Below are positions 6,031 to 51,405 of a DNA stretch of 64,000 bases, piece by piece. The stretch lies in the IMG/VR virus record IMGVR_UViG_3300045988_101018, positions 61,635-125,634 of that record; one strand, 5' to 3'. A program made the position numbers and the translations under genes. The DNA is from a virus. The notes below the pieces were generated by a model that saw only the letters and a program-made list of their open reading frames with translations, had not been told where the DNA came from and made no database searches. Each line of letters begins with the position of its first letter. The stretch's first letter is position 1.

Positions 6031-6056
6031 CCCATTATAATAGGAAGTCTTCTGCT
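6022..6056 (-). terminator. rho-independent terminator after int2 (stem AAGACT/AGTCTT, U7 on minus strand)
   Basis: hairpin overlapping int2 stop codon followed by TTTTTTT on minus strand. Confidence 0.6.
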
Positions 6057-9834: not shown

Positions 9835-10360
9835 CGCTGGTGTTATCGTCTAGGGTAATACCAAATGGAAGGAAAACGCCCTGACAGAAAGCATCTCCCT
9901 TGTTAATACGAATCTCCTTGGCTAGACAACTGTTATTTGTCAACTTTACAAAAATATTGCCTTCATTATCAGAGTCAAAGTAATCGCCATCAATAATAGA
10001 TACAGTGTTTGCCATTGACAAACCGTATTTGAAACCAAGTCCACTACGCGGGAATCCCATCAGAACCCAGCCATCATACATCTCACAGCGAATACCAGTC
10101 GGAATCTTAATGGAGTCGTTAGGCTCAAGAACAAAGCTCATTGGAGAAAAGAAATCATAACCTGCACTCTGAGCTGTGGCACGCTTAGGGAGCTTGATAC
10201 CATTATAGATATTGCGAAGATGCTTCTCAAGCTTATCGTTATCAGTCTCGTCCTTTAGGGCATCGAAGGTATCAAGCCAATCATCGTGGAACTGATTGTA
10301 GGATACCTTAGAGAACTCAGCCATACGCTTCATATAAATCACCTTTCTTTGTTGTCGCAT
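9794..10360 (-). CDS. dut: dUTP diphosphatase (dUTPase)
   Basis: dUTPase motifs AGYD, PRSGLG, IDGDY, GxxFxQG, RNGGLGSTD; start probably internal MKRMAEF preceded by AAAGAAAGGTGA. Confidence 0.85.
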   Translation of the reverse strand: MRQQRKVIYMKRMAEFSKVSYNQFHDDWLDTFDALKDETDNDKLEKHLRNIYNGIKLPKRATAQSAGYDFFSPMSFVLEPNDSIKIPTGIRCEMYDGWVLMGFPRSGLGFKYGLSMANTVSIIDGDYFDSDNEGNIFVKLTNNSCLAKEIRINKGDAFCQGVFLPFGITLDDNTSDVRNGGLGSTDAK

Positions 10361-35908: not shown

Positions 35909-36170
35909 TTACACCATCCTTAACAATCTTAAACATATCGGCGATATCATCCATCAAATCATAACGCTCGGTAGACACAGAACTCTTAGCGAACTGTCGA
36001 TTAACAGCATCTACATACATAGTGCAGACATAGATTGAAAAAACACAGGCACTACTTCACTTCCCACCTAAAATCACCAAGCTCACGTTCGACTTCTTTT
36101 CTCCAAGCCCAACGTTGCTTGTTGGCGATGCCGTTCCTGCCACCTGATAAGAGAATCTTGAATTTATCCA

Positions 36171-36917
36171 TTAGGCAACACCTCTCACATTATCAGGCAC
36201 ATCCTTCTGGCTGTTGTCATAACTCCACTCGCCAAAATATTTTTCTTCTGCTTCTTTTCGGGCAGACACAGCATCTTCAAAGTCGTTAAATTTTCCTAAA
36301 TGAATGCGTTTATTATCTATTCCGATATACGCTTCCCATTTATCACTTTTCTTATTGAAAGATACACCAGTAACACCAGAGGTATTGGTTTGCAACAACA
36401 CTCTGTTCATAGCATTTTGATTTGGTGTTGCGATTCTAAGATTAGATTTCCTATTATCGAACCTTGATTTTTCTCCATGTTTGTGATCGATATATACCTC
36501 TGTGTTATCGCATTCCATAATAATTCTATGTAACAACACTCTATTTCTATTCTTTGGATTATATGCCGAAACATATCCCTTATTGGTAATAGTCCAACAA
36601 TAATCCTTTATTTTATCATAATCCTCTAAATCAAACCAAAATTCATTCCCATTTGATGTATAACCAATTCCATATTCGCCAGATAAATCATATGTATTAT
36701 ACTTTTTTCTTGCTTTTGCAAATGCTTCATCATGTAAACATCCGCACGATTGTGTATTTCCCGATGTTAACATATACCCAAGCACAGTTGCATAATTACC
36801 ACAATCACATTTACACAACCATTGCGACCTTTTCTGTCCACTTGGAAGAATACGATTCTCGACTCGTTTTATTATTGTTAGTCTACCAAATCTTTTTCCA
36901 TTTAAATCTAATGCCAT
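36171..36917 (-). CDS. free-standing HNH homing endonuclease with AP2 DNA-binding domain
   Basis: 248 aa; IDHKHGEKSRFDNRKSNLRIATPNQN HNH motif; C-terminal GVSFNKKSDKWEAYIGIDNKRIHLGKFNDFEDA AP2-like. Confidence 0.8.
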   Translation of the reverse strand: MALDLNGKRFGRLTIIKRVENRILPSGQKRSQWLCKCDCGNYATVLGYMLTSGNTQSCGCLHDEAFAKARKKYNTYDLSGEYGIGYTSNGNEFWFDLEDYDKIKDYCWTITNKGYVSAYNPKNRNRVLLHRIIMECDNTEVYIDHKHGEKSRFDNRKSNLRIATPNQNAMNRVLLQTNTSGVTGVSFNKKSDKWEAYIGIDNKRIHLGKFNDFEDAVSARKEAEEKYFGEWSYDNSQKDVPDNVRGVA

Positions 36918-37807
36918 TATTCATTTACTTTCTTAAACATGTCCGCAATATCGTCCGTTATTGGGAATCGCTCTACAGATACGGAACTTTTTGCAAATTC
37001 TCGTTTAACACTATCTACGTATAAAGAAAATTTACCATCATCACCCATATAAAATTCTTTATAGTCTTTATCACTCATAAGGCGCTTAGGTTCAAGCTGC
37101 TTAATTGCAAGGTTATCAAAACTAATGCACTTAAACCAACCATCGTTCACAATCTTAGGTAGCATATCATAGAACTGGGATTTTAGATAATCAATTTGGC
37201 TACCGCACTCATCATATAGGGTTTTGCCACGCCTAAAATCCTTATATCCAAGAATGAGAATCTTCAAATCATTATTGGCAAGGGCTTCTAGACCGTCCAT
37301 ATGCACAATACCGTTAATAACATGAACAACAGCATTTGGAAATTGCTTGATTGCTTCAATGCAATTGCTATGACGGCCACCGATATATGAGATACCAAGA
37401 CCATAGATTAACTTATTATCAGTAAGCTCTTTTAGCAAATCAATATTCTGCATAAAGTGCATTTGATTCACCGTCATACTTGCGATAATCTTACGCTCTT
37501 TAAGATGCTCAAGAAACTCAATCAGGTCTGGATGGGTCAAAGGATTACCGCCACCGATTGCAACCTCGCTATAGGGAAACATGGTATCGATAAACGGAAG
37601 GTTCAGAATATCGCCATGCTTCCCATCTGGCGTTGAGTTCTCGTGGCACATGTTACACGCCATATCGCACCTGTTAGTAATCTTAAGGTCGATTGACTCA
37701 GGCTTGATTGGGTTAAATGAATCCTTATCATTCCACCTAATTTTAGTACCGTCTGAGAACATGGTACAGGTATAGTCGTTGTTCTTATAACTGCCAAGAA
37801 TCTTCAT
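36917..37807 (-). CDS. radical SAM domain protein (CDMACNMC cluster), function unknown
   Basis: 296 aa; CxxxCxxC near N-terminus; glycine-rich SAM-binding-like GGGNPL. Confidence 0.65.
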   Translation of the reverse strand: MKILGSYKNNDYTCTMFSDGTKIRWNDKDSFNPIKPESIDLKITNRCDMACNMCHENSTPDGKHGDILNLPFIDTMFPYSEVAIGGGNPLTHPDLIEFLEHLKERKIIASMTVNQMHFMQNIDLLKELTDNKLIYGLGISYIGGRHSNCIEAIKQFPNAVVHVINGIVHMDGLEALANNDLKILILGYKDFRRGKTLYDECGSQIDYLKSQFYDMLPKIVNDGWFKCISFDNLAIKQLEPKRLMSDKDYKEFYMGDDGKFSLYVDSVKREFAKSSVSVERFPITDDIADMFKKVNE

Positions 37808-37815
37808 TACTTCTC

Positions 37816-38288
37816 CTAGCGATATCCATATGCTCCGAATGCAATCATATCATCACCAGACGGAGTTGTAAAGGATGTCTCATACTGCTCTAGTTCGTCA
37901 TTATATCTACACCAATCATCATATGTATAGATACCTAGGTCGTACAGTCTTGAATCCTCGCGGCTAGACTCTACCTCTTCGTCATCGCTATACTCCAACA
38001 TGTCAACATCGACAGGAGTATACCATTGCTCATCTTTATACTTCTCTTCATAATACTTTGCGTACTTTTCGATAGCCTGCTTCACTGCTTCTTTATCATA
38101 GATTCCGCTTCCAACACCATCAGCAAAACAACGATTAAAAGAATAGCCATATCCATCTCCATCAACAAAATAATATTCACCATGATTACTCGAAACCCAT
38201 TTATTAAAATCGTCTTTCGTCATAATACATAGTGAGTGCGTTGAACTTGAATTAGTCTCGAACACACCAGCGCGAATCTGAATCATTA
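37816..38288 (-). CDS. hypothetical protein, paralog family MIQIR(A/N)GVFETNSSSTHS
   Basis: start trimmed to internal MIQIRAGVFE; tandem paralog of next gene. Confidence 0.45.
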
Positions 38289-38296
38289 TATAACAC

Positions 38297-38878
38297 CTAG
38301 TTTCCCTTATAGAAGTATTCGTATTTCTCTTCATCATGATTGGGGTTTGGCTCTTCCCAGCCGTTGTGCCAATCCGTATCCCACTTCCAGATAGTAGGCT
38401 CTGCGGCATTGCACATCATGCCACCCTCGTCATTGTCATTGCCAGTATACACATGACTATCGCTAAAGAGATAGCGAATCAGCATATCGTCATTGTCAAG
38501 CACTGCATGTACGAACTCATATGTATCATATCCGTGGTCGATATAGCCAACATCAAGCTCGTCCCATTCATTTCCATCACCATAATCATAGTGAACTGTC
38601 TTGGGCTTTTCAAACGTATAGGTGATACCATGAGCATCGAGAATATCCTTTAGCTTATCGAGAAGCCCGTCTTTGCCACTACGGTCAAGCTCATAGATTG
38701 CCGTGTATAGATAATCCGCTACATCGGCATCTCCATTCTCCCAGCCAAACTCTCCAAAATGAAAGTCAACATGGCAACCATCTGCATCAACAGGTTTCTT
38801 GGAGATACAAATGCTGTGCGTACTTGAGCTATTAGTCTCAAATACTCCATTGCGAATCTGAATCATATCAATCACCAC
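38297..38878 (-). CDS. hypothetical protein, paralog family MIQIRNGVFETNSSSTHS
   Basis: 193 aa; shares N-terminal 20-aa motif with 37816-38288. Confidence 0.5.
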   Translation of the reverse strand: MVIDMIQIRNGVFETNSSSTHSICISKKPVDADGCHVDFHFGEFGWENGDADVADYLYTAIYELDRSGKDGLLDKLKDILDAHGITYTFEKPKTVHYDYGDGNEWDELDVGYIDHGYDTYEFVHAVLDNDDMLIRYLFSDSHVYTGNDNDEGGMMCNAAEPTIWKWDTDWHNGWEEPNPNHDEEKYEYFYKGN

Positions 38879-38880
38879 TC

Positions 38881-39000
38881 ATCCCAAATACCATAGTCTT
38901 CATTCCCATACCTACGAAGTTCATCTTCCTTGTGGGAAATCTTACAGCACGTATATGATACCACAATTACCGCCACCATAACGATTGCAATTACTATCAT
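38881..39000 (-). CDS. small membrane protein (~39 aa, MIVIAIVMVAVIVVSY...)
   Basis: below cutoff; ATGA start/stop overlap with upstream gene. Confidence 0.35.
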
Positions 39001-39413
39001 GCTGCACCCACCTCATTTTTCCAATCAAAATCATCAAATACATTGCCAATGACCTCAATGATTAGATTAATGTCTTCGCCAAAGCTATAATACTTAGAAT
39101 GCTCCCAGTCAAACATGAAATAAGAAGCACGCTCTTCGACATATGCAATTTCGACAGTAATCGTATTGCCATCCTCATGTCCTTCTTCCATGTCAACTGT
39201 ACAGATATCGCCTTCATATAGCTCGACACCATGTTTATCCACAATTCCTAGGCTTTTGTGGAATAAGTACCTATCTTCAGGCAATTCCTTCAATTTTTGC
39301 CATCCGAACACAGCGTTTCCGCAGGTCAGAAGCTTGTTTTCTCCGCATGAAATTAGAATTTTATCGGGGTCTGCCCATTCACGATTTTTTAGATCAAAAA
39401 CCCTATACGACAT
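38997..39413 (-). CDS. hypothetical protein
   Basis: 138 aa ORF. Confidence 0.5.
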   Translation of the reverse strand: MSYRVFDLKNREWADPDKILISCGENKLLTCGNAVFGWQKLKELPEDRYLFHKSLGIVDKHGVELYEGDICTVDMEEGHEDGNTITVEIAYVEERASYFMFDWEHSKYYSFGEDINLIIEVIGNVFDDFDWKNEVGAA

Positions 39414-39425
39414 ATAAAAACTCCT

Positions 39426-40367
39426 TTAGTGTGCGGCCTTATCTGCTTCATGTAGAATCATAACACACTGCATGAAGTAATCGCCCCACAATTTTTTATA
39501 TTTGTTATACATCTTCTCGTTGTTATCCCTCTCCCACACCCAAGGTTTCATGTGATTTGAGATAAGCGCTGAAACAAATAAGGAACTGATGCCAGCAACA
39601 TATGTAAAGAACAGGCTGTCATATGCACCTACATGTTCATGTCCATAATAGTGGGCTATGTCTGTAGTTTCGCCTTTGTTATTCTTAAATGTCTTACAAA
39701 ATGGCTTGCCGCAATCATGGATTAGCGCCGCATCTATTATGGCTCCAATTGAAGCGTGATGGAACCAATCGCTGCCATATAGCCAATACGCAGCCTTCAT
39801 ACAATGCACACCAAGGGTTGACTCGTGGTGCGGATTATCTTGATTATAATTCTTATAACTTAGCGCCCAAGACATTGGAAGTAATGAGCCGTTGCAGCTA
39901 CCTTTCCAATACTCAATGCTAATACAGTCAAAAGATTCATAATGATACGGTGTGTCAAAGCTTTTGTACATACGCTCAATAATATAATCTGGTACACGTC
40001 TGTCTCTGCTCGCATTATTTCTCAGACATTGCTCATATGGAGTAGCGGCGATGATACATTCTTTCCGACAAGGGATGCGTTTCAGCTCTTGCAAAAAAGC
40101 AATGCGTCTTTTAGAGCTTAGATTGCAAGCGTCATAGATAACATTATTACCTTCTTTTAATGCCGTCTTAATACGCTTATGTAGCTCTATAAACAACTCA
40201 TGGTTATGCGTCTGGTCGTTAATATCTCCGTAAAGTTCTTCTCTTAATTCATCTGAGCTGAATATAATATAATTATTTTCTTTGGCTAGATTATAAGCGA
40301 TGGTGGACTTGCCACTTGCAGGCAAACCCACCATCATCACTAGCACTGGCTTTGTGCTAGTCTCCAT
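39426..40367 (-). CDS. polynucleotide kinase (P-loop) fused to HD-domain phosphohydrolase (RNA end-healing enzyme, Pnk-like)
   Basis: 313 aa; N-terminal GLPASGKST Walker A + SSDELRE; C-terminal HD-domain residues H..HD..H..H..D. Confidence 0.7.
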   Translation of the reverse strand: METSTKPVLVMMVGLPASGKSTIAYNLAKENNYIIFSSDELREELYGDINDQTHNHELFIELHKRIKTALKEGNNVIYDACNLSSKRRIAFLQELKRIPCRKECIIAATPYEQCLRNNASRDRRVPDYIIERMYKSFDTPYHYESFDCISIEYWKGSCNGSLLPMSWALSYKNYNQDNPHHESTLGVHCMKAAYWLYGSDWFHHASIGAIIDAALIHDCGKPFCKTFKNNKGETTDIAHYYGHEHVGAYDSLFFTYVAGISSLFVSALISNHMKPWVWERDNNEKMYNKYKKLWGDYFMQCVMILHEADKAAH

Positions 40368-41546
40368 TTATTCACCAGCTTTAAGCAAGAATTTGCGGGA
40401 GACGTTCTTGAAACTGCGCTGTCCATCCTGACTACGATACACAAAGCCCTCGCGTAGACACTTCTTATTGATTACACTCTTGCCATCAGCAGACTGCTTG
40501 AACTCCTCAAAGTCATCAGCATCGGGCAAGATATAGTTATCATCAATAATAGGCACGAATGGAATATCGTACTCGGCTAGAATCTTCTTTGCTTCGACAG
40601 AACCAAGACGCTCTCCATCAAAGATTAGATTGAATGCTGCAAAGCGGCGCTCATCAAGCTTGTACTTGTTACCCTGTACGGACTCACCGTATGTCTCACC
40701 CTGTAGTACAACGTGCTTATGGTTATGCTTCTTTGCAATATCCTTAAGAGCATCCTCGACATTGTACTTGAAAGCCATTTCCCAGTAGACGTTTCCGATA
40801 CCAGACATATCAGAAACAAAGTTCTTCTGGTCTGCATCCATCTGACGAACATTGCGTGAACACACACCAAAATCAGGCTTACGACCACTCAAATCAAGGA
40901 AGAACGTAGTAGAAGTGCCATCAATCTTCTCAGTCACAACATAAGGATTCTTGTCTTCGAGCATGAACATAACATTCTCGATGCGATCCTCATCTGTTTT
41001 CTTTACCCATACAGGCCAATTCTTAGGATTGTCTTTCTTACGACCAAAGAAAACAAACAGTAGCTTGCGACCCCATGCACGCTTCATAAGCCACTTCCAC
41101 CACTTCTTCTTGGCAAGCTTAGAATTGCGTGCGCACATATTATTGTACTTGGCGTTGGGATTAGACTTAGCCTTACGAGCATTATCCTCGGCTACATAAT
41201 ACTTAATACCAAGCAGATTTGTCACGTCCTCGTGAACGTCCTTATCCTTAATCTCAGGGAACACATCAATGGGCATGAGAAGTCCCTGCGAATAGACCTT
41301 ACACATCTTAATGGTCTTAACCTTATAATGCTTTTTCTCAAGGAATGCAAAGCGCTCATCGTTACTAGGAACAAGCGAATCAGTCTCGATATACAAAGCC
41401 TTATCGCCTACCTTAAACTGATTCTTCTGGGCGATAATCCACCAGCCGCCGACACGTGCATGTTCAACACGGTCATAGTTTGGAATAGGCTTAATCTCCT
41501 CAACGATAACTGGATAAGCCAATGCACGCTCGCCATTTACTAGCAT
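40368..41546 (-). CDS. ATP-dependent polynucleotide (RNA) ligase, KxDG nucleotidyltransferase with N-terminal extra domain
   Basis: 392 aa; VVTEKIDGTSTTFF motif I lysine at ~215; stop/start overlap with Pnk-like gene. Confidence 0.6.
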   Translation of the reverse strand: MLVNGERALAYPVIVEEIKPIPNYDRVEHARVGGWWIIAQKNQFKVGDKALYIETDSLVPSNDERFAFLEKKHYKVKTIKMCKVYSQGLLMPIDVFPEIKDKDVHEDVTNLLGIKYYVAEDNARKAKSNPNAKYNNMCARNSKLAKKKWWKWLMKRAWGRKLLFVFFGRKKDNPKNWPVWVKKTDEDRIENVMFMLEDKNPYVVTEKIDGTSTTFFLDLSGRKPDFGVCSRNVRQMDADQKNFVSDMSGIGNVYWEMAFKYNVEDALKDIAKKHNHKHVVLQGETYGESVQGNKYKLDERRFAAFNLIFDGERLGSVEAKKILAEYDIPFVPIIDDNYILPDADDFEEFKQSADGKSVINKKCLREGFVYRSQDGQRSFKNVSRKFLLKAGE

Positions 41547-41629
41547 ATCGTAACCTTTCTACTCTAGTAAACTTGTTGTTATCATATTATAGCAACTGTT
41601 TTAGTTTCAAACACGTCAAAGCAACGGAT

Positions 41630-42796
41630 TTAGTTGCTATTCCTTATAATCTTCATAATCTTTACTACTTTTTCAATAACATAATCAATGGCTTCATATG
41701 TAATGTCAGAAGAAATCGTAAATCTAATAGACCTTGCACATTCTTCATCCGTTAATCCAAGGGCTTTGAGAACATAAGACGGCTTCTTAGAATGACTATT
41801 GCAGGCAGAACCAGTGCTGCATTGAATATCATCTAGGTCAAGCATATACAAAAGCTCTTCTGAACCAATGCCTTCAGGCAACCTTACATTAATATTATTT
41901 GGCAGTCTTGACGCTAAACTGCCATTTGGAACACATCCTCTTGTGACAAGCTCACGCATGAAATAATTACGCTTCATACATATGGCATCTTTATTTTCCA
42001 TTTCCTCAGATGCGAGTTCAACGGCTTTCGCAAAGCCGACAATACCAGCAACATTTTCAGTTCCCCCTCTAAGTCCAGAATTCTGGCTACCATAGATAAT
42101 GGGCTGAATTTCAATGCCGTTTTTCTTGTATAAGAACCCAACCCCTTTAACACCTCCAATCTTATGTGCCGATGCGCTTAACATATCAATACCCATTTCC
42201 TTAACATCAATAGGAATCTGTCCAAAGGCTTGCGTTGCATCTACATGAAGAACGCCACCATATTTATGAACAATCTCAGAGACATCCACGATGTTCTGAA
42301 TAGTGCCAACCTCGTTATTCGCCATCTGAATCGACACTAAAACATCATAATAAGTAGGTTCTTCACGCTCTTCGAATACAGACTCAAGTTGGTCTACATC
42401 TACAAACCCAAATTCATCAACATCAAGATATGTTACATCACAATAGTAAGTACTGCTACCAAGTCGCTCCATAGCATCAACACATTCCATGATAGACTTG
42501 TGCTCAATCTTGGTTGTAACAATGGAAGTACTGGAAATATCCATCATACCAGCAAGCACATAACCCTGAATAGCCCAGCAATTGCTTTCAGAACTGCCAG
42601 AAGTGAAATAGATTTCATCTACATCCGCATTGATGAAGTTTGCAATCGTCTGGCGTGAATCTTCAATGGCGTGCTTGACCCTAGCGCCGCTACTATAAAT
42701 AGCAGAAGGATTATAAAACTCGTCCTTCAAATATGGCATCATGGCTTCAAGAACTTCTGTGTTAACCATAGTAGTTCCTGCATTGTCTAAGTACAT
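41630..42796 (-). CDS. cysteine desulfurase (NifS/IscS-like class V aminotransferase)
   Basis: 388 aa; PLP-lysine SASAHKIGG, active-site CSTGSACNS. Confidence 0.75.
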   Translation of the reverse strand: MYLDNAGTTMVNTEVLEAMMPYLKDEFYNPSAIYSSGARVKHAIEDSRQTIANFINADVDEIYFTSGSSESNCWAIQGYVLAGMMDISSTSIVTTKIEHKSIMECVDAMERLGSSTYYCDVTYLDVDEFGFVDVDQLESVFEEREEPTYYDVLVSIQMANNEVGTIQNIVDVSEIVHKYGGVLHVDATQAFGQIPIDVKEMGIDMLSASAHKIGGVKGVGFLYKKNGIEIQPIIYGSQNSGLRGGTENVAGIVGFAKAVELASEEMENKDAICMKRNYFMRELVTRGCVPNGSLASRLPNNINVRLPEGIGSEELLYMLDLDDIQCSTGSACNSHSKKPSYVLKALGLTDEECARSIRFTISSDITYEAIDYVIEKVVKIMKIIRNSN

Positions 42797-42898
42797 ACAT
42801 TAACTCCTTAACAATATGGAGAATAGCAGCGACTAGTATTCTATCAGAATACATATTATCCAAACCATTCTCCATATAATTTATATGTATTCTATTGT

Positions 42899-43453
42899 TT
42901 AGCAGTAAACCTTATTATAATAGTCATTACGATAAGGATTAAACTCACGATAGCGGCGCTTATGACTATGACGCGCTAAATCATCAAGATAATCATCAAC
43001 ATAATCTAGATAATCACTGTAAGTCTGAATGAGCTTATCCCAATAATCATCGTCCTCATCATCATGATTCTTGCGCTTCGGCTCATCCTTTACATCATCC
43101 TCGTCCTGAGAATCATATAGGTCGCAATGCTCGCAATCTCCATCGCAATCTTGCTCATCAACGACATCATCGCCATCGGAAACATCTGAATAATGGTATA
43201 GTTTGTTCTGTAGGAGATAGCCCTCAAGCTCCCACACCTTGCGCTCAATATTCTTCATGCAAATGTCAATACCCATATCTTCATCATAATTAGCAGGATC
43301 AACGCAAGAAGAAGATTCGACAATTACAAAACCATTTGGCAGCTGACATGCCACAATAGTACACTTATCAAATGCCTTGGTAATTGCAATATCGGAACTC
43401 TCAATAAGTTCATCTACAACAGCCTGAGTTACCGTATTCTTTGTACGTGCCAT
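42899..43453 (-). CDS. highly acidic early protein (candidate DNA mimic / anti-restriction)
   Basis: 184 aa; C-terminal half ~45% D/E with Tyr (DDEDDDYWDKLIQTYSDYLDYVDDYLDD); preceded by early motif. Confidence 0.5.
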   Translation of the reverse strand: MARTKNTVTQAVVDELIESSDIAITKAFDKCTIVACQLPNGFVIVESSSCVDPANYDEDMGIDICMKNIERKVWELEGYLLQNKLYHYSDVSDGDDVVDEQDCDGDCEHCDLYDSQDEDDVKDEPKRKNHDDEDDDYWDKLIQTYSDYLDYVDDYLDDLARHSHKRRYREFNPYRNDYYNKVYC

Positions 43454-43473
43454 AATAAATCACCTTTCTATTG

Positions 43474-43494
43474 GCATATAACCTTAATTATAAG
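43474..43494 (-). promoter_or_regulatory. early motif copy 6 (CTTATAATTAAGGTTATATGC) upstream of acidic-protein gene
   Basis: read directly; followed by RBS AAAGGTGA. Confidence 0.5.
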
Positions 43495-44026
43495 ACAGAA
43501 AATCAATAGCTTTTGTGCCGAGTCTTTCCACAGTCCTAGTGACATTCTGTCTTGTACAATCCATTGTATCACTAATCTCTTGATGTGTCATCCCATTTAA
43601 TAGACATGATAAAATATATTTTTCATTGTCGTTTAAGCTGTCGATAAATTCTTTAACCATCATGTCACTGATAATTCTATCATCAAAATCATAATCAATC
43701 AAATTTTGGTTAATTTCTTCATCAGAAACACACATGTTTTCATATGAATAATAATCTGCCAATTCTTTTTCTTCGTTTAACAGATAATATGGGTTTGCAT
43801 CGTTAAGCGCACCATCAATGATTCTATTCATTTCATCTGTCTCGCCATTAGAAAACTCTCTAAGTTTATATTCGTTTTCCAATAGCCATTCAATAGCTTC
43901 TAATGAACAGTCACCAGCATGATCGCAATTATAATCCGCATCTGATATCTCAATATCAAGACAACTATAAAAATCATAGTAGAAATCATCGTTTTCTACT
44001 GTTTGTTCTTTAATGGGTGTTTCCAT
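43484..44026 (-). CDS. sigma-70 region-4-like HTH protein (putative phage sigma factor / transcription regulator)
   Basis: 180 aa; C-terminal EKYILSCLLNGMTHQEISDTMDCTRQNVTRTVERL HTH; acidic N-terminus. Confidence 0.5.
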   Translation of the reverse strand: METPIKEQTVENDDFYYDFYSCLDIEISDADYNCDHAGDCSLEAIEWLLENEYKLREFSNGETDEMNRIIDGALNDANPYYLLNEEKELADYYSYENMCVSDEEINQNLIDYDFDDRIISDMMVKEFIDSLNDNEKYILSCLLNGMTHQEISDTMDCTRQNVTRTVERLGTKAIDFLSYN

Positions 44027-44152
44027 ATATCATATTCCAACTTTCTTTCAATCTATTTACATCACAAAGAATCTTCCATCAGAAAATTCTGTTTTATTCT
44101 TATGATATTATATCAGAAAAGTAACACAAATGGAACTCTCTTCACAAAATAA

Positions 44153-44593
44153 TTACACATCAAGTTGGAGATAGCTATAACCATCGTTATCAGTATAATA
44201 GATATGCCTAATACCAAGGTTTTTCAGGGCGTTCATACAAGCAGGACATGGCTTTGCACACGCCATTTTAGTATCGTTCATCGGTCTATAGATATAGATA
44301 CTAGCCTTATCCCATCTCACATTTATTCCGACAGTATATGAAATTGAGCATATTGCAGAAATCTCTGCGTGTAATTTATCTGGGGAGTATACATCGGCAT
44401 TGTTGTAATCTCTATATCTATTAAACTCCTTCTGTAAAGGATGGGTTTTATTGCTGTTGCATCCTCGGCCTATGATATGCCCCTTATATGTTATGACAGC
44501 ACCGACATGTTGCGAACGTCTTTTATACGTGCTTTTTATTGCTTCTTTATGCGCTTCGTTGAACATTCGCATATCGAACTTTGAGAACTCCAC
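44153..44593 (-). CDS. dCMP deaminase (CMP/dCMP deaminase zinc-binding family)
   Basis: 146 aa; HAEISAI and CAKPCPAC zinc ligand motifs. Confidence 0.8.
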   Translation of the reverse strand: MEFSKFDMRMFNEAHKEAIKSTYKRRSQHVGAVITYKGHIIGRGCNSNKTHPLQKEFNRYRDYNNADVYSPDKLHAEISAICSISYTVGINVRWDKASIYIYRPMNDTKMACAKPCPACMNALKNLGIRHIYYTDNDGYSYLQLDV

Positions 44594-44601
44594 TTTAACC
44601 C

Positions 44602-44994
44602 TTAATCATATAGCCTGTTTTTACTTCTTGCATTTGCATATTCATCCTGTGGGTTGTACCCATCAGAACAATTATGCGTTAAATGCCATCGCTTACATAT
44701 CTTGCACTTATATGGCATCAGTATATTTCCAGAACTGTTAAATATCTTCCTTGCCGCACATAGGGCATCATATCTACACGAGTATACCTTCTTTGATTTA
44801 CAAGTGTCGATATTCTTTCCGCGCACATGTATAAAGTTTGGACAAAGGAATGACTTGTCATACAGCTTAGTTGTATCTTCAATCATATCGTGAGTTGTAT
44901 TGTCATACCCACAAAGAACTGAACTTCCATGTTCTTTAATTCTGTTTTGGCATACTGTGCATATAAATGTCGGCATATATATTCTCCAATACAC
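44602..44994 (-). CDS. Cys-rich zinc-ribbon protein
   Basis: 130 aa; multiple CxxC pairs. Confidence 0.5.
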   Translation of the reverse strand: MYWRIYMPTFICTVCQNRIKEHGSSVLCGYDNTTHDMIEDTTKLYDKSFLCPNFIHVRGKNIDTCKSKKVYSCRYDALCAARKIFNSSGNILMPYKCKICKRWHLTHNCSDGYNPQDEYANARSKNRLYD

Positions 44995-45031
44995 TTGCTT
45001 TGCGTATATATTATATCATCTAGATATAAAA

Positions 45032-45064
45032 AGAGAGGGTACATCCAAAAGGACGTACCCTCTC
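45032..45064 (-). terminator. rho-independent terminator (11-bp stem AGAGAGGGTAC/GTACCCTCTCT + U-run on minus strand)
   Basis: read directly; downstream of SPFH gene stop. Confidence 0.7.
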
Positions 45065-45179
45065 TACATATATTAAACACAATTGCTTTCGCGTTAAGAT
45101 TTCAAGAACGCATTCTCTACTTTCACATAGCCGAAACTATCCGTCTTTCATGGGCTTAAACCAAGGCTATTCAAACAAG

Positions 45180-46202
45180 CTAATTACCAGTGTTAATCAT
45201 TGGAGTAGAACCGTTAGGAACCACAACAAGATTGCCTTCCTTGCCGACATCCTTTAGTGCATCAATGTAATGCTGCTGCAACACTTGGTCATTAAGGCTC
45301 TGTGCAAGAACAGCATTTGCATCTGCTTCACCCTGAGCTTCAATCTTCTTAGTCTCAGCCTGAACCTTGGCAGTCTCCTGCTCATTCTTCGCCTTCTGCT
45401 TTGCCACTTCAGCTGCCTGAGCCTGTGAATAGCTATCGGTAATAGACTTAGGATAGCGTACATCCTGTACGCTTACCTGCTCAACAGTAAGACCGATTTT
45501 ATTCCACTTCTTAGTCAGCGCATCCTGAACCGCCTTAGTGAACTGAGAGCGATCGGTCAGCATGGTAACGGTATCAAACTTACCAGAAACCTCACGGGTA
45601 ACAGCACGAACATCATTGGAAATATACTTCTCAACAAAGCTCTCCTGAGTACCATACTCAGAATAAAGATTAAGTGCTGAGTCTGGATTTAAACTATAGT
45701 TAACCTGAATATCAATGTTGGCACTGGCACCAGACTTATCATTGATTGATACCTGCTTGCCCTCATATGAGCCACCATCAACCTTGTAATCGGTATCGCC
45801 ATAGAAATTGATAAGATTGTTGCGTACATCATACGTAATAACATCTTGCCAAGGCATCTTGATATGGAAACCAGCTTCAGAAGTTGAATCGGCAAGAGAA
45901 CCACCGAGATTACGAATTACGCAAACCTCACCAGTGTCCTGTGTATAGATGCAAGAACCACTGATAAATGCAAAGGCAAAGACAATACATACTACTGCAA
46001 CGCCACGAGCGCAAGTGTGCGCAAATTTTACAGTCTTAATATCCGTCTCGTTTTTAATATATGACTTCCCAAGAATATTGGTGTCTTCGACAGGTTCGGG
46101 AATCTTTGTGCGAATATCAAAGACAATGAATGGAATTGCAATAAGTAGTGCAATAATTCCGACAACAAACGTTATCATACCAACCCTTTCTACGTACAAC
46201 AT
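45180..46202 (-). CDS. SPFH/band-7 (prohibitin/HflC-like) membrane protein
   Basis: 340 aa; N-terminal TM helix, SPFH core, Ala/Gln/Glu-rich coiled C-terminal region. Confidence 0.75.
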   Translation of the reverse strand: MLYVERVGMITFVVGIIALLIAIPFIVFDIRTKIPEPVEDTNILGKSYIKNETDIKTVKFAHTCARGVAVVCIVFAFAFISGSCIYTQDTGEVCVIRNLGGSLADSTSEAGFHIKMPWQDVITYDVRNNLINFYGDTDYKVDGGSYEGKQVSINDKSGASANIDIQVNYSLNPDSALNLYSEYGTQESFVEKYISNDVRAVTREVSGKFDTVTMLTDRSQFTKAVQDALTKKWNKIGLTVEQVSVQDVRYPKSITDSYSQAQAAEVAKQKAKNEQETAKVQAETKKIEAQGEADANAVLAQSLNDQVLQQHYIDALKDVGKEGNLVVVPNGSTPMINTGN

Positions 46203-46207
46203 TCAAA

Positions 46208-46241
46208 CAAAAAAAACAGGATGCGTATTCACGGCACATCC
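46208..46241 (-). terminator. rho-independent terminator ending the tRNA operon (GGATG..CATCC stem + U8 on minus strand)
   Basis: read directly. Confidence 0.65.
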
Positions 46242-46420
46242 AGAGGATCTGTTTTTACGGTGTTTCAGCTCACCAATTACTCCGTGAAAGCACTTGCTTA
46301 TCTCCTAGCAAGAAGGCTCGCTATCCTCCCGAATAGCTATGCGGCGTTGCCTATTCTTCCGCGAAAGATTGTTTTCGGGGACAATCTTGAAACCCACTGC
46401 CAATAGGGGCAGGATGTATA

Positions 46421-46506
46421 TGGCGGAGACATTGGGAATCGAACCCAAACTAGATTGCTCTAGGACACCTTAGCAGGGTGCTGCGCTACCTTTACGCCAT
46501 GTCTCC
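46421..46506 (-). tRNA. tRNA-Ser (anticodon GCU), type II with long variable arm
   Basis: cloverleaf folded by hand: acceptor GGAGACA/TGTCTCC, anticodon loop CUGCUAA, T-loop GGTTCGATTCC, CCA encoded. Confidence 0.8.
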
Positions 46507-46596
46507 TTCGTTGCGGGGTGCGTTGCCAACTACACCACATGTCTTTTGTAAAATAACATAATAATAAGCACATGGCTACTTATTTTCCGTCTATAC

Positions 46597-46680
46597 TGAG
46601 ACACGTCTGGACTCGAACCAGAGACAGTTGAGCCGTTATCATCCATGAGAATCTGGCTTTATCGTGATTATATCCACGCC
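46597..46680 (-). ncRNA. tRNA-like 3' fragment (T-arm TCTGG-TTCGAGT-CCAGA plus acceptor-like strand) with no matching 5' acceptor; preceded by extended -10 promoter TTGACATTGTATAAT
   Basis: T-arm consensus present but no cloverleaf could be completed; possible degenerate tRNA or small RNA. Confidence 0.3.
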
Positions 46681-46720
46681 CCGATTATTATACAATGTCA
46701 ACTATGACAAGAAAAAATCA

Positions 46721-46796
46721 TGGAGCCGATGACAGGAATCGAACCTGCAACAGACTGATTACAAATCAGTTACTCTACCAATTGAGTCACATCGGC
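46721..46796 (-). tRNA. tRNA-Thr (anticodon UGU)
   Basis: acceptor GCCGATG/CATCGGC, anticodon loop TTTGTAA, T-loop GGTTCGATTCC, CCA encoded. Confidence 0.8.
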
Positions 46797-46815
46797 AATT
46801 GTGCAATTGATTGTG

Positions 46816-46889
46816 TGCGCTATGTAGGATTCGAACCTACGACCTACAGATTAGAAGTCTGTTACTCTATCCAGCTGAGTTAATAGCGC
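46816..46889 (-). tRNA. tRNA-Arg (anticodon UCU)
   Basis: acceptor GCGCTAT/ATAGCGC, anticodon loop CTTCTAA, T-loop GGTTCGAATCC. Confidence 0.8.
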
Positions 46890-46940
46890 ACACAATCAAT
46901 TGTTGTATATAAAAGATATTATATCATATCTTAATATATC

Positions 46941-47025
46941 TGGTAGGGAAGAAGGGATTCGAACCCTCACGCTCTATGAGCAAGAGATTTTAAGTCTCCG
47001 ATGTCTGCCATTCCATCACTTCCCC
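46941..47025 (-). tRNA. tRNA-Leu (anticodon UAA), type II
   Basis: acceptor GGGGAAG/CTTCCCT, anticodon loop CTTAAAA, long variable arm, CCA encoded. Confidence 0.8.
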
Positions 47026-47031
47026 GAGTTT

Positions 47032-47106
47032 TGGTATCGGCTACGGGAATCGAACCCGTGTTTCCACCTTGAAAGGGTGATGTCCTAACCGTTAGACGAA
47101 GCCGAC
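47032..47106 (-). tRNA. tRNA-Glu (anticodon UUC)
   Basis: acceptor GTCGGCT/AGCCGAT, anticodon loop CTTTCAA, T-loop GGTTCGATTCC, CCA encoded. Confidence 0.8.
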
Positions 47107-47109
47107 ATT

Positions 47110-47195
47110 TGGTGCCGCATCTAGGTAACGCTCCTAGCCAGTCATAGACATTGGATTTACAGTCCAACCCTCGTCTTTAAAGGATTACTGCGGCA
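47110..47195 (-). tRNA. tRNA-Tyr (anticodon GUA), type II, non-canonical T-loop (AGCGTTA)
   Basis: perfect 7-bp acceptor TGCCGCA/TGCGGCA, anticodon loop CTGTAAA, CCA encoded; D- and T-arms atypical. Confidence 0.6.
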
Positions 47196-47197
47196 AT

Positions 47198-47274
47198 TGG
47201 TGGACACAGTAGGATTTGAACCTACGACCTTATGCGTGTAAAGCATCTGCGCTAACCAGCTGCGCCATGCGTCC
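47198..47274 (-). tRNA. tRNA-Val (anticodon UAC)
   Basis: acceptor GGACGCA/TGTGTCC, anticodon loop TTTACAC, T-loop GGTTCAAATCC, CCA encoded. Confidence 0.8.
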
Positions 47275-47275
47275 G

Positions 47276-47351
47276 TGGTGGGGTCGGTGGGGGTCGAACC
47301 CACGACCTTGGGATTAAAAGTCCCCTGCTCTTCCAACTGAGCTACAACCCC
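47276..47351 (-). tRNA. tRNA-Lys (anticodon UUU)
   Basis: acceptor GGGGTTG/CGACCCC, anticodon loop CTTTTAA, T-loop GGTTCGACCCC, CCA encoded. Confidence 0.8.
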
Positions 47352-47355
47352 GTTA

Positions 47356-47430
47356 TGGTGGGAGATGAGTGAGTCGAACACTCTTCAATCCGTTATAAGC
47401 AGACTGCCCTAACCGTTGTGCTAATCTCCC
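47356..47430 (-). tRNA. tRNA-Ile-like with anticodon UAU (AUA decoder) - unusual
   Basis: acceptor GGGAGAT/ATCTCCC, anticodon stem GTCTG/CGGAT with loop CTTATAA, T-arm GAGTG-TTCGACT-CACTC, CCA encoded. Confidence 0.6.
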
Positions 47431-47461
47431 ATAGCCATTACAATAGACGGTAATATATCGT

Positions 47462-47547
47462 TGGCAGTGACAAGATTTGAACTTGTATACAGGAGCTACC
47501 TGTTTTGCCCATTAAAGCATAGCGTATACCGATTTCGCCACACCGCC
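47462..47547 (-). tRNA. type II tRNA-like gene (Leu/Ser/Tyr-class architecture) with unresolved anticodon arm containing UUUAAUGG (possible 8-nt loop)
   Basis: acceptor GGCGGTG/CACTGCC, T-arm ACAAG-TTCAAAT-CTTGT, variable arm ACAGG-TAGCT-CCTGT; no standard 5-bp/7-nt anticodon stem-loop could be drawn. Confidence 0.5.
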
Positions 47548-47560
47548 AAGTCACATTACC

Positions 47561-48700
47561 GTCTATGGAATATATACTTTTCAAGCATGGTCTATATGCT
47601 CTTAGATCGATTCTGGCAATAAATCTGTTCATACCATACAACAACACGCAATGATAATATATACTCCATAGACGGTGGTAGCTTACTAAAGTCCTCACCA
47701 ACTACCAGAGGGGTCACTTATTTTAAATACCGTCCGCGCTGGCAGACCTTCCAACGCTACCGATTTTACGCAACGGTGTACGCTTAACAGTCCGCTTCCT
47801 CCGTTAAGACAAGGGGTAACATTACGCCGTTACCATGCGCCCAAGACTTGTCAGGTAGCTATCTCCATCGTAAACCTTGGGACTAAGCGTTAACGGAAAA
47901 TACGTTTGAGTTAAATTGGAGCAACCATGAAACCAAAACAGAAAGGAGCCATTGTATTTTCCGTCTGCGGAATCGTACCGCACCATCTGTATCAGCAAAG
48001 CAACCAAAAACCTAATACAGAATCGAACCTCGCTTTGTCGGTCAAGCAAACCAACGCGAAAGATTGTCTCAGGCCTTCGCCTTACCTTCATAAAACGTAG
48101 TGGTAATTCGGTCACATAGGAAATGGAGCTGAGACACAAGGAGCGACCTCGTATCTTTCCATCCCAACTTGCGTCAATCTATGGCTGGATTGGCTACCAA
48201 CAACTTTCACCCACCATTCAGCATATTAATCTTCTATACTATCCAAATTTGGGCTACTCGTACTCACGTCTGGTCTTATAGCTGATTACCAGCATCAATT
48301 GGACAACTATCTTGTGGCACTCCAAGCGATTGGCATAGCTGCCACACTATCCTCTACTTGGTTCAATGAAGTGCGTACCTCATATCTATTGCGATAGCGA
48401 CCAGTTAGCGATACCATTTTCTTGCGTTTCATCACAGCACCGTGTCTGCCCTCAGTTGAGATTTTCCATCTCTCCTGCCCTTCTAAAGATGTCAGTTACC
48501 TGCATCAGGCAAAGCCTACCTATAGGGTATCCTCTATAGTGGAACTCTTTGAACACGTCCATGACCCAATGGAATTTGGAATACACATGGTTGAAACAAT
48601 CCTTCGCGTTGATTTCTCAACGCTGATACTTTATGCAAATATCAAGGTGCAACTGGAAACTTCCGTTTCTCTGTGTCAGATATTATAGCATCTAACTTTA
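47561..48700 (-). ncRNA. ~1.1-kb ORF-poor, GC-richer region adjacent to tRNA array: candidate large structured ncRNA (ROOL/GOLLD-like?); strand not determined
   Basis: only short random-looking ORFs; 18-bp near-perfect inverted repeat 47569-47587/47650-47668; composition differs from flanks; context typical of phage large ncRNAs. Confidence 0.35.
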
Positions 48701-50595: not shown

Positions 50596-51405
50596 TTAGA
50601 TAAAATCGTAACCAAGCTCAAGACTGTCGAACACGTCTTTGATTTCATCGTCCATAATGCCGATGTATTTTCGTGTAGTAGCCACGCTGCTATGATTGAA
50701 CACATAGCTTAGAATGACAAGCGCCTTGTCCTTATCTTCCGCATCATGCCACGCCCTAAAGCCGAATGATTTCCTCAAGGAATGGCTACCGATATTCTGA
50801 TTGATCCCAGCTTCCTTGGCTGCGCTCTTAACGATACGCCAAAGGGTAGTAGCCGCAATAGCACCGTCACCCTCACGGGATTTAAACATATACTCGTTTA
50901 AATTATCCACAGGAAATTCATTAAGGTACTCTACGACAACCTTCTTGACAGTGTTATTAAAGAACAGCTTAACAAACTTCTTCTGCTTGCGTGTTTTTTT
51001 AGGTTGCAAAGTATAGAAGTCCTTAAACTTATACTCCCCGTCCTTAACGCAGTCCAAGAAGAAACTCCATTTAAGCGTAATCAAATCGCTTGCACGCAGA
51101 CCGACATTGATGCCGATAACGAACAGCAACTTATTCCGACTGGCAAGCTGACGATGATGCTCATCGGTGGCTTCATTGATATGCTTGTCAAACACATCAA
51201 TCATAGACTTAATCTCTTCATCGGTACGGAAAGCATACACCTCAGAAGATACACCAGCAGGCTTTAATCCGCCGCTATTATCACGAGCCTTCGGACTTTT
51301 GGGTTTAACGTCTTTGGTGCCTATGATAACGCTAAACGGAATGATATTGTTCTGCTGCTTTTCTTCCACAACAACTGGCGCAAATGCTGGACTAGCCATT
51401 ATCAA
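50596..51405 (-). CDS. tyrosine recombinase (Int3), short form
   Basis: 269 aa; GLRASD (Arg), HSLRKSFG (HxxR), SVATTRKYIGI (Tyr); preceded by GTAGTTATCAAGTAG motif. Confidence 0.75.
   Translation of the reverse strand: MIMASPAFAPVVVEEKQQNNIIPFSVIIGTKDVKPKSPKARDNSGGLKPAGVSSEVYAFRTDEEIKSMIDVFDKHINEATDEHHRQLASRNKLLFVIGINVGLRASDLITLKWSFFLDCVKDGEYKFKDFYTLQPKKTRKQKKFVKLFFNNTVKKVVVEYLNEFPVDNLNEYMFKSREGDGAIAATTLWRIVKSAAKEAGINQNIGSHSLRKSFGFRAWHDAEDKDKALVILSYVFNHSSVATTRKYIGIMDDEIKDVFDSLELGYDFI

Follow-up and report, generated by a model that had tools for sequence, protein, structure and literature searches.

Ligase, Pnk-HD and desulfurase proteins

The virus record IMGVR_UViG_3300045988_101018 from IMG/VR carries three consecutive genes for RNA and sulfur enzymes in the 64,000-nt stretch that was analysed here (positions 61,635 to 125,634 of the record, hereafter called the window). 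They encode a class-I cysteine desulfurase (NifS), an Rnl5-type RNA ligase and a protein that combines a polynucleotide kinase domain with an HD domain (Pnk-HD), and they lie downstream of a tRNA array and a ROOL RNA (Table 1). A sequence-only reading of the stretch had proposed a tRNA-repair cassette of kinase-HD protein, KxDG RNA ligase and NifS-like desulfurase next to a ten-gene tRNA array. All three open reading frames (ORFs) were found on the minus strand as described. The observation was thereby confirmed; its interpretation, a T4-type countermeasure to host anticodon nucleases, was partly supported. The stop of the ligase gene abuts the start of the Pnk-HD gene with a 0-nt gap, and the desulfurase gene lies 83 nt upstream of the ligase gene.

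Pnk-HD is predicted to consist of an N-terminal P-loop 5'-OH polynucleotide kinase (residues ~1-150) and a C-terminal HD phosphoesterase (~175-313). Pfam AAA_33 covers residues 9-140 with 83.1 bits, and the kinase domain retains the P-loop (GLPASGKS, 14-21) together with D39, R42 and D79, the first two within SSDELR at 37-42. Both the P-loop and this SSDxxR Asp/Arg motif align with Clostridium thermocellum Pnkp (CthPnkp), whose kinase is the closest solved relative in sequence (4gp7, 5e-10), ahead of weaker PDB matches to PSTK, Pnkp1 and T4 Pnk (7e-4 for T4 Pnk). The AlphaFold model of the full-length protein, with a predicted local distance difference test score (pLDDT) of 94, likewise found the CthPnkp kinase as its best PDB match (4gp6; Foldseek TMt 0.76, root-mean-square deviation 2.3 Å). 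Pfam detected no HAD domain in Pnk-HD. Of the profile searches that the sequence-only reading had suggested as a check, those with AAA_33, RNA_ligase and Aminotran_5 gave the expected matches, and HD scored 19.4 bits over residues 213-310, under the 22-bit cutoff. H181, H217, H243/E244, H272 and D309 show no variation among 43 homologues, and D218 is almost invariant. A model of the HD part alone (residues 150-313, pLDDT 92) matched HD-fold structures only, the top eight at TMq 0.45-0.61 and prob 1.0. The best of them were 3wfo-3wfs (TMq 0.52-0.61), which were deposited as 'tRNA processing enzyme' and which we take to be class-II tRNA nucleotidyltransferase, followed by PhnZ, TmpB, PPX/GppA and MESH1. 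Because of the conserved residues, the fold matches of the HD-only model and the motif alignment with RM378 p110 described below, we place the C-terminal half, on sequence and predicted structure, in the HD superfamily despite its sub-cutoff Pfam score. phrog_6931 matches Pnk-HD through its C-terminal half only. The family is large, with 2,252 protein clusters at E ≤ 1e-5, mostly from phages of gut Clostridia and Bacillaceae.

The ligase has an N-terminal OB domain (PHA02142 OB-fold, PF21189, 70.9 bits at residues 15-93) followed by a nucleotidyltransferase domain (RNA_ligase, PF09414, 70.3 bits at 201-380 of 392) and has no C-terminal accessory domain. Both domains align with Naegleria gruberi NgrRnl (5cot, 2.4e-34), and K207 (EKIDG, with KIDG at 207-210), E284 (LQGE), E366 (REG) and K380 (SFK) fall on the NgrRnl motifs. 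The ~200-residue N-terminal region that had been noted ahead of KIDG is therefore present. The domain order had been called Rnl3/Rnl5-like; the Rnl5 half of that description holds, and an Rnl3-like ligase was rejected, as both domains match Rnl5. Because the score of 112.2 bits for TIGR02306 (RNA_lig_DRB0094) lies below the cutoff of 151.15, the sequence identifies the ligase as an Rnl5 relative rather than a DRB0094 equivalog. Pfam gave no match to the Rnl1-type PF09511, and PHROGs assigned the protein to phrog_968 'RNA ligase' (3.4e-66). Between the OB and nucleotidyltransferase domains lies a strongly basic, Trp-rich insert of ~60 residues (117-176; …KKKWWKWLMKRAWGRKLLFVFFGRKK…), which has no counterpart in NgrRnl, is covered by phrog_968 and may be an RNA-binding or membrane-associating element.

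The desulfurase matches Aminotran_5 over its full length (204.7 bits) and cysteine desulfurases in the PDB (9wep at 5.8e-76, 4eb5 and 1ecx). Its pyridoxal phosphate (PLP) lysine, K212 in SAHK, and its catalytic C332 in GSACNS are both invariant in nine phage homologues. It scores under the NCBIfam equivalog cutoffs for NifS (TIGR03402, 370.7 vs 530.75), IscS (282.5 vs 643.2) and DndA (281.1 vs 480). A function in DndA/SspA-type DNA phosphorothioation was rejected on the DndA score and on finding no Dnd/Ssp partners. By Pfam, none of the ~50 ORFs scanned in the window, which is about half of the phage genome, belongs to the MnmA, ThiI, TusA or NifU/IscU families.

Recurrence of the gene pair and of NifS beside it

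For comparison we collected 140 Pnk-HD loci from viral and genome collections, which reduced to 75 lineages at 70% identity, 60 of them with enough flanking sequence. These and all other comparative counts rest on tblastn searches with few queries, and the loci are in part kin by descent; the ligase counts near Pnk-HD, obtained with five queries, are lower bounds. An RNA ligase was found within -4 to +2.5 kb of Pnk-HD in at least 39 of the 60 lineages and within 10 kb in at least 43. The partner ligases differ in family, comprising several Rnl5-like OB-nucleotidyltransferase subtypes and an Rnl1-like type (PF09511). Because the adjacency persists while the family of the partner ligase changes, ligase and Pnk-HD very probably constitute, as judged from their sequences, a conserved functional unit for RNA end healing and sealing.

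A gene with a Pol-beta fold occurs within ±10 kb in 22 of the 75 lineages, most often between ligase and Pnk-HD. The example at 9163-9981 of locus L014 encodes ~270 residues with a weak Pfam Polbeta match (E = 0.029) and without a match to the RlaP model; such genes probably encode RlaP-like end-filling enzymes. We searched the window for a Pol-beta/RlaP gene and found none. Pol-beta-like, RlaP, CCA-adding enzyme and YqeY genes as well as tRNA arrays recur around the loci, and the order tRNA array, NifS, ligase, (Pol-beta-like), Pnk-HD is found in lineages down to 37% Pnk-HD identity. HNH homing-endonuclease genes are mobile within the region. In the window one such gene comes after the radical-SAM gene, with a 36-residue relic copy of the radical-SAM C-terminus beyond it; others are inserted between ligase and Pnk-HD in L008/L009 (L008 9282-9992) and between the gp49-like gene and NifS in L007 (6862-7563).

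The desulfurase is less constant than the ligase. In 13 of the 60 lineages NifS lies within 10 kb of Pnk-HD, and in seven it is the gene immediately upstream of the ligase. These seven are deeply diverged from the window (37-59% identity in Pnk-HD, 32-54% in NifS), and in four of them (L022/L030, L037/L038, L103/L108 and L113) the gap between NifS and ligase is 26-35 nt, at a Pnk-HD identity of 37-55%. We also surveyed from the side of NifS, where the best 80 viral loci gave 42 lineages, 32 of which had sufficient flanking context. In 16 of the 32, at least one gene for an RNA ligase, Pnk-HD, RlaP, a CCA-adding enzyme or RtcB lies within 8 kb of NifS, and 12 of these 16 have an Rnl5-like or Rnl1-like ligase, with or without Pnk-HD. 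In one lineage of six loci, RtcB (PF01139, 196 bits) ends 12 nt before NifS. In another, of seven loci, NifS is part of a string of metallophosphoesterase, NifS, RlaP (PF10127, 64.5 bits) and a CCA-adding enzyme with an HD domain, with variants of the string in L325 and L310/L314. A single inherited arrangement is an unlikely cause of the linkage because it spans unrelated ligase chemistries. On these gene neighbourhoods, the link between NifS and RNA repair appears real but partial, and NifS is an accessory neighbour of Pnk-HD, not a core component. The literature that was searched, which did not extend to the main survey of RNA-repair neighbourhoods, contained no report of a desulfurase associated with RNA repair, and a prior mention is possible. 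This recurring association is the element of the locus that appears to be new.

The sequence-only reading had linked the desulfurase to tRNA thio-modification, or alternatively to sulfur supply for radical-SAM enzymes. The recurrent linkage to repair genes gives the first idea more comparative support than expected; the accessory distribution of NifS and the lack of a sulfur acceptor in the window speak against it. A simple connection to 2-thiouridine at position 34 (s2U34) is unsupported. The usual carriers of s2U34 are Lys, Glu and Gln tRNAs, and these tRNAs are missing from several of the NifS-bearing arrays. The radical-SAM gene of the window lies 2.5 kb downstream, and its family co-occurs with NifS in six of the eight Pnk-HD lineages that have it. 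The encoded protein, which gave no informative match in the PDB or NCBIfam, is homologous to RM378 p108 (2.7e-8), whose gene is two genes from the HD-Pnk gene of that phage. Owing to this co-occurrence and this homologue near HD-Pnk, the supply of iron-sulfur (Fe-S) clusters to the radical-SAM enzyme is an equally good reading of NifS as tRNA thiolation.

tRNA array, ROOL RNA and surrounding genes

ARAGORN and Rfam (40-73 bits) each call nine tRNA genes at default thresholds. The Tyr-GUA gene of the sequence-only reading, which would be a tenth, appears only at a relaxed ARAGORN threshold that also yields spurious calls. In this Tyr-GUA-like element the acceptor stem of 7 bp, the encoded CCA and the anticodon loop with GUA are accompanied by a non-canonical D arm and T loop (AGCGUUA), and the element is 99% conserved in the four relatives that have it. 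A second sub-threshold element in the Thr-Ser spacer resembles Trp-CCA; its acceptor stem is G-U-rich and its T arm canonical. The array thus comprises nine firm tRNAs and one or two sub-threshold tRNA-like elements.

The array begins with a type-II tRNA, not mentioned in the sequence-only reading, that is Leu/Tyr-like, has a long variable arm and lacks an encoded CCA. The anticodon loop is only 6 nt long (UUAAUG) and invariant in 13 relatives, the closing pair covarying from U-G to A-U. Every sequence keeps the full set of 23 pairs, and nine of these show compensatory changes. This tRNA always heads the array while the remaining content varies, and the number of tRNAs in close relatives ranges from four to nine while the cassette is constant. 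Unusually long tRNAs were called by ARAGORN in related arrays at ~1-4.6 kb (L037, L038, L045, L052, L058 and related loci), namely Phe-GAA of 92 nt, Thr-UGU of 85 nt and Ile-UAU of 90 nt. L019 has a Met-CAU of 92 nt, and in L110 a 4-base 'anticodon' is reported for one tRNA. It seems that non-canonical tRNAs are common in this phage group.

As had been noted, the tRNAs mostly read A-ending codons: seven of the nine anticodons have a uridine at position 34 (U34). The ORFs of the window themselves favour T-ending over A-ending codons (41% vs 21%), and the cognate codons AGA, UUA and AUA make up 24%, 16% and 15% of their families. Because of this preference for T-ending codons, the codon bias of the phage is by itself not enough to explain the array.

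ROOL, also absent from the sequence-only reading, shares the strand of the first tRNA, lies ~500 nt upstream of it and matches RF03087 with 288.1 bits (gathering score 99.1) over model positions 1-574 of 574. Rfam scans placed it at the same position in seven of seven relatives, and nhmmer did so in 14; blastn found no match to it in GenBank phages. A promoter-like site with a TG extension was seen just upstream of ROOL. The spacer between ROOL and the tRNAs holds a sub-threshold Rfam match to RAGATH-36 (39.6 bits vs a gathering score of 70, full model length), which could reflect a further structured RNA or be fortuitous. We rejected ROOL as a general partner of repair genes: among 119 loci with the ROOL motif, Pnk, Rnl or NifS occur in the window clade only, a comparison of low power given the short flanks. 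A position directly upstream of phage tRNA arrays has been described for the ROOL family (PMC12286853). The window ROOL is ordinary in this respect, and its link to repair genes is limited to this phage clade.

The whole region is coded on the minus strand. In that direction ROOL and the tRNA array are followed by an SPFH/Band-7, a Cys-rich, a deaminase-like, a sigma-like and an N4-gp49-like ORF, then by NifS, ligase, Pnk-HD, YopX, two phrog_28997 ORFs and the radical-SAM protein (Table 1). The five ORFs between NifS and the array (42899-46202) have no obvious relation to RNA repair, and their order is kept in close relatives. The array and ROOL are separate elements of already known kinds within one island of accessory genes. 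The cassette had been called adjacent to the array. It is indeed near, 3.6 kb away with the array upstream; the association is a loose one, with the five ORFs and a strong terminator-like hairpin in between. Promoter and terminator scans of the window gave counts at shuffled expectation and were therefore unusable for defining operons. The two paralogous phrog_28997 ORFs overlap, have the N-terminal motif IQIRxGVFETNSSSTHS in common and are both kept in all close relatives.

Table 1. Features of the region, with coordinates in the window unless a locus is named
Feature	Position	Strand	Size or evidence
Tyrosine recombinase (Phage_integrase) gene	475-1371	-	
Tyrosine recombinase (Phage_integrase) gene	6035-7231	-	
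Relic of radical-SAM C-terminus	35916-36023	-	36 aa
HNH homing-endonuclease gene	36171-36917	-	
Radical-SAM protein	36917-37807	-	Pfam Radical_SAM 32.7 bits; phrog_16999 'Fe-S oxidoreductase' 3e-47
Radical-SAM entry in locus L347	46543-47382		
phrog_28997 ORF	37816-38409	-	PHROGs
phrog_28997 ORF, paralogous and overlapping	38297-38878	-	PHROGs
YopX	38997-39413	-	Pfam YopX 43.9 bits
Pnk-HD (kinase + HD)	39426-40367	-	313 aa
Rnl5-type RNA ligase	40368-41546	-	392 aa
Class-I cysteine desulfurase (NifS)	41630-42796	-	388 aa
N4 gp49-like ORF	42899-43453	-	Pfam, PHROGs
Sigma-like ORF	43484-44026	-	Pfam, PHROGs
Cytidine/dCMP deaminase-like ORF	44153-44593	-	Pfam, PHROGs
Cys-rich ORF	44602-44994	-	130 aa; Pfam, PHROGs
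Terminator-like hairpin	45065-45032		
SPFH/Band-7 ORF	45180-46202	-	Pfam, PHROGs
tRNA array	46421-47548	-	ARAGORN, Rfam
Ser-GCU	46421-46506	-	ARAGORN + Rfam
Trp-CCA-like, sub-threshold	46598-46682	-	relaxed ARAGORN only
Thr-UGU	46721-46796	-	ARAGORN + Rfam
Arg-UCU	46815-46889	-	ARAGORN + Rfam
Leu-UAA	46941-47025	-	ARAGORN + Rfam
Glu-UUC	47032-47106	-	ARAGORN + Rfam
Tyr-GUA-like, sub-threshold	47110-47194	-	relaxed ARAGORN only
Val-UAC	47198-47274	-	ARAGORN + Rfam
Lys-UUU	47276-47351	-	ARAGORN + Rfam
Ile-UAU	47356-47430	-	ARAGORN + Rfam
Type-II tRNA, 6-nt anticodon loop	47460-47548	-	89 nt; ARAGORN + Rfam; covariation
RAGATH-36 match, sub-threshold	47813-47985	-	Rfam
ROOL RNA	48052-48614	-	Rfam RF03087
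Promoter-like site with TG extension	48710-48682		
Tyrosine recombinase (Phage_integrase) gene	50596-51405	-	

Elsewhere in the window, replication and nucleotide metabolism are represented by an anaerobic ribonucleotide reductase (NrdD), PolIII alpha and RecD2-like and DnaB-like helicases, and there are a C5 methylase, a PD-(D/E)XK nuclease, a dUTPase, a deoxyribosyltransferase, HNH endonucleases and three tyrosine-integrase-like genes, one of which lies just upstream of the ROOL/tRNA island. The phage is known from metagenomes only, and GenBank phages contain no near-identical DNA except tRNA fragments. The same gene order is found in ten IMG/VR contigs, which span 35-131 kb and of which seven exceed 89 kb. 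Because Pnk-HD relatives occur in genomes and metagenome-assembled genomes of gut Clostridia (Roseburia, Oscillospiraceae, Dysosmobacter, Lachnospira) and in Bacillaceae, the sequence comparison points to a large (~130-kb) phage of anaerobic Bacillota, in particular of gut Clostridia.

Proposed function, alternatives and known systems

We consider it moderately probable that the ligase and Pnk-HD form a two-gene RNA end-healing and sealing module in a phage of gut Clostridia, accompanied by an accessory desulfurase. Domain identities, catalytic residues, folds and the conserved gene pairing are shown by the analysis; from them we infer the enzymatic activities, an RNA (tRNA) substrate and a role in counter-defence. 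A ribonuclease of the host or of a competitor would leave 2',3'-cyclic phosphate (or 3'-phosphate) and 5'-OH ends. The HD domain of Pnk-HD would clear the 3' block to give a 3'-OH, and its P-loop domain would phosphorylate the 5'-OH. The Rnl5-type ligase, via Lys207-AMP, would then join the 3'-OH/5'-PO4 break, with the ends held in a duplex-like context. Broken tRNA stem-loops would be the most plausible substrate, other structured RNAs being possible. NifS would most likely supply persulfide sulfur, either to have phage or repaired tRNAs thiolated via host enzymes or to furnish the Fe-S clusters of neighbouring enzymes such as the radical-SAM protein. Of the T4-type scenario that had been proposed, the healing and sealing pair stands; the opposing nuclease enters by analogy with T4, by which an action against anticodon nucleases on a tRNA substrate is plausible. 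RLIG1, whose closest structure is NgrRnl, joins breaks within anticodon loops of tRNA in vitro (PMC11494293).

Several observations weigh against this proposal. The HD domain and the ligase both score below the cutoffs of their models, and the comparative counts carry the limits given above. Characterised Rnl5 enzymes (DraRnl and NgrRnl) seal duplex nicks with a 3'-OH RNA strand and are not known to repair anticodon loops. We identified no anticodon nuclease or other trigger. Arrays of at least three tRNA genes within 10 kb accompany Pnk-HD in only 14 of the 60 lineages, and in the window five unrelated ORFs and the terminator-like hairpin part the cassette from the array. For the desulfurase, NifS is absent near Pnk-HD in 47 of the 60 lineages, and its association with tRNA arrays is not significant (odds ratio 4.2, p = 0.058). 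No RNA-repair genes were found near NifS in the other 16 of the 32 lineages surveyed from its side. The five sampled among these have replication, DNA-modification, integrase or phosphoesterase neighbours (PolIII fragment, Mom, PD-(D/E)XK, integrases, deoxyribosyltransferase, metallophosphoesterase), and in one further lineage without repair genes a DUF1064 protein alone adjoins NifS. In some relatives YopX directly follows NifS with no ligase-Pnk pair between them, so that the pair acts like a piece inserted or deleted independently. Relatives frequently carry DNA ligase genes close by, at 1-6 kb from Pnk-HD in Sophrita, Kirov, L014 and L015, which would fit a role at DNA ends.

These DNA ligases bear on the idea that the pair serves phage replication by acting on DNA or RNA-DNA junctions. 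Pnk-HD would then heal DNA ends with 5'-OH and 3'-phosphate, the ligase would seal nicks whose 3'-OH strand terminates in ribonucleotides, and tRNA would not be repaired. The setting of the cassette in the half of the window devoted to replication and nucleotide metabolism (NrdD, PolIII alpha, RecD2-like, DnaB-like, dUTPase, deaminase) favours such a role, as do the nick-sealing habit of Rnl5 enzymes and the Runella HD-Pnk, which has been described as a DNA/RNA end-healing enzyme. However, the partner can be an Rnl1-like ligase, the genes recurring nearby are Pol-beta-like, RlaP, CCA-adding enzyme, YqeY and tRNA arrays, and the phages with a DNA ligase close by retain the RNA ligase too; we regard a replication function as unlikely. 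Still further from our expectation, and very improbable, is a Pnk-HD that performs no end healing at all and instead joins a tRNA-directed or small-molecule kinase (PSTK/KTI12-like) to an HD hydrolase of nucleotides or alarmones. PSTK does give the top NCBIfam score (56.9 vs 47.7 bits for bacterial Pnkp, both far under their cutoffs), Pfam also reports KTI12 and Zeta-toxin matches, and alarmone hydrolases are among the weak HD fold matches. Yet those last matches reach a TM-score of only ~0.3, the best sequence and structure matches are CthPnkp, mammalian PNKP and T4 Pnk, the SSDxxR motif aligns with CthPnkp, both domains match RM378 p110, and an RNA ligase is the constant neighbour. As to the array, it may simply supplement codons in the ordinary way or replace host tRNAs that have been depleted, with no functional tie to ligase, Pnk-HD and NifS, a serious possibility that falls a little short of even. 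This view agrees with the 3.6 kb, the unrelated ORFs and the hairpin in between, with a tRNA content that changes beside a constant cassette, with the absence of arrays within 10 kb in 46 of the 60 lineages and with the many phages whose ROOL/tRNA islands lack these genes. Against it stand the array-NifS-ligase-(Pol-beta-like)-Pnk-HD order that recurs in distant lineages, a codon usage that does not favour the A-ending codons read by these tRNAs, and the seven U34 anticodons, a class commonly hit by anticodon nucleases.

Two further views concern NifS. It could be a general auxiliary metabolic gene for Fe-S assembly, serving Fe-S and radical-SAM enzymes, its place beside the ligase being inherited synteny without function. 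The nearby radical-SAM gene and the co-occurrence of its family with NifS, the anaerobic ribonucleotide reductase encoded by the phage, the NifS lineages in which no repair gene was found, the NifS-YopX adjacency and the lack of a sulfur acceptor for tRNA thiolation in the window all suit this view. Against it, NifS lies 12-46 nt from unrelated repair families (Rnl5-like, RtcB, RlaP with CCA enzyme) in different lineages, and a NifU/IscU scaffold was not found in the window either; we rate it somewhat unlikely as a full account. At the opposite end, the phage desulfurases might be a dedicated third part of tRNA restoration that re-installs thio-modifications on repaired or phage-encoded tRNAs. 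Host nucleases would cut or excise thiolated positions, the ends would be healed and refilled (Pol-beta/RlaP, CCA enzyme) and sealed by Rnl5-like, Rnl1-like or RtcB ligases, and NifS would then provide persulfide sulfur for re-thiolation. Such a role would explain why NifS stands in tight strings with chemically unrelated RNA-repair genes in many phage lineages, and we consider it a long shot.

RNA repair by phages counts among the few direct answers known so far to immunity that targets tRNA, a kind of defence now recognised as widespread, and the locus reveals a large family (more than 2,200 clusters) of domain-swapped kinase-HD proteins with interchangeable families of RNA ligase. If the link to NifS is functional, sulfur trafficking or re-modification would be added to the RNA-repair toolkit, and a phage 'metabolic' gene would gain a concrete role open to testing; otherwise the locus simply adds one more example of a known counter-defence module.

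Among known systems, the window desulfurase resembles NifS/IscS of class I in its full-length Aminotran_5 fold, PLP lysine and catalytic cysteine loop, but differs in its sub-equivalog score, in being phage-encoded, in the lack of a scaffold or acceptor in the window and in its recurrence beside RNA-repair genes. The ligase has the layout of the Rnl5 enzymes NgrRnl and DraRnl (DRB0094), with an OB domain ahead of the nucleotidyltransferase domain, no C-terminal domain and the KxDG and Glu/Lys motifs. What sets it apart is the additional basic segment of ~60 residues, the sub-cutoff TIGR02306 score, its phage origin and its pairing with an end-healing enzyme. T4 Pnkp and Rnl1, which act against PrrC, are likewise a kinase-first phage kinase/phosphatase and an RNA ligase, with the same presumed heal-then-seal logic. 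In T4, however, the phosphatase is of the HAD type and the ligase is Rnl1, whereas the window has HD and an Rnl5-type ligase, both predicted from sequence.

Bacillus phages (Sophrita gp164/gp165, Kirov 99/98, PBC2 and the Tsamsa group) encode proteins with the same kinase-then-HD order, at 97-100% coverage and 30-35% identity. In Sophrita and Kirov (~33% identity) the ligase is immediately upstream, as in the window, and the pair is known from its annotation as 'RNA ligase' / 'polynucleotide kinase'. The Sophrita partner is Rnl1-like (PF09511) whereas the window ligase is Rnl5-like, and, unlike the window, the Bacillus phage pairs have no NifS, tRNA array or ROOL within 8 kb. Apart from a short match to RM378 p110, sequence relatives of the window HD domain in GenBank phages are restricted to Bacillus/Lysinibacillus phages and one uncultured faecal phage record.

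The use of an HD domain in place of a HAD phosphatase, to which the sequence-only reading had drawn attention, is correct and has precedents. RM378 p110, the Runella slithyformis HD-Pnk and the Deinococcus radiodurans PNKP all join a P-loop kinase and an HD domain in one polypeptide, as Pnk-HD does. A PNKP subfamily with kinase and HD phosphohydrolase domains has been described, with 3'-phosphatase activity shown for phage RM378, and the Deinococcus PNKP is HD-first (H81/D82, R371) (PMC1997131). The Runella HD-Pnk, also described as HD-first, is a 2',3'-phosphoesterase/5'-kinase whose ORF lies just downstream of and overlaps a ligase ORF (PMC6097658); the ligase is thus immediately upstream of the healing enzyme in Runella as in the window. 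RM378 p110 (361 residues) aligns with Pnk-HD at 31% identity over 100 residues of the kinase (9e-9) and at 32% over 37 residues of the HD motif region (4e-4), in swapped order: HD (35-94) precedes kinase (189-325) in p110, whereas the kinase (9-140) precedes HD (175-313) in the window. HD-based end healing was already known, and the window Pnk-HD is, judged by its sequence, a variant in domain order, with kinase before HD as in the T4-like arrangement.

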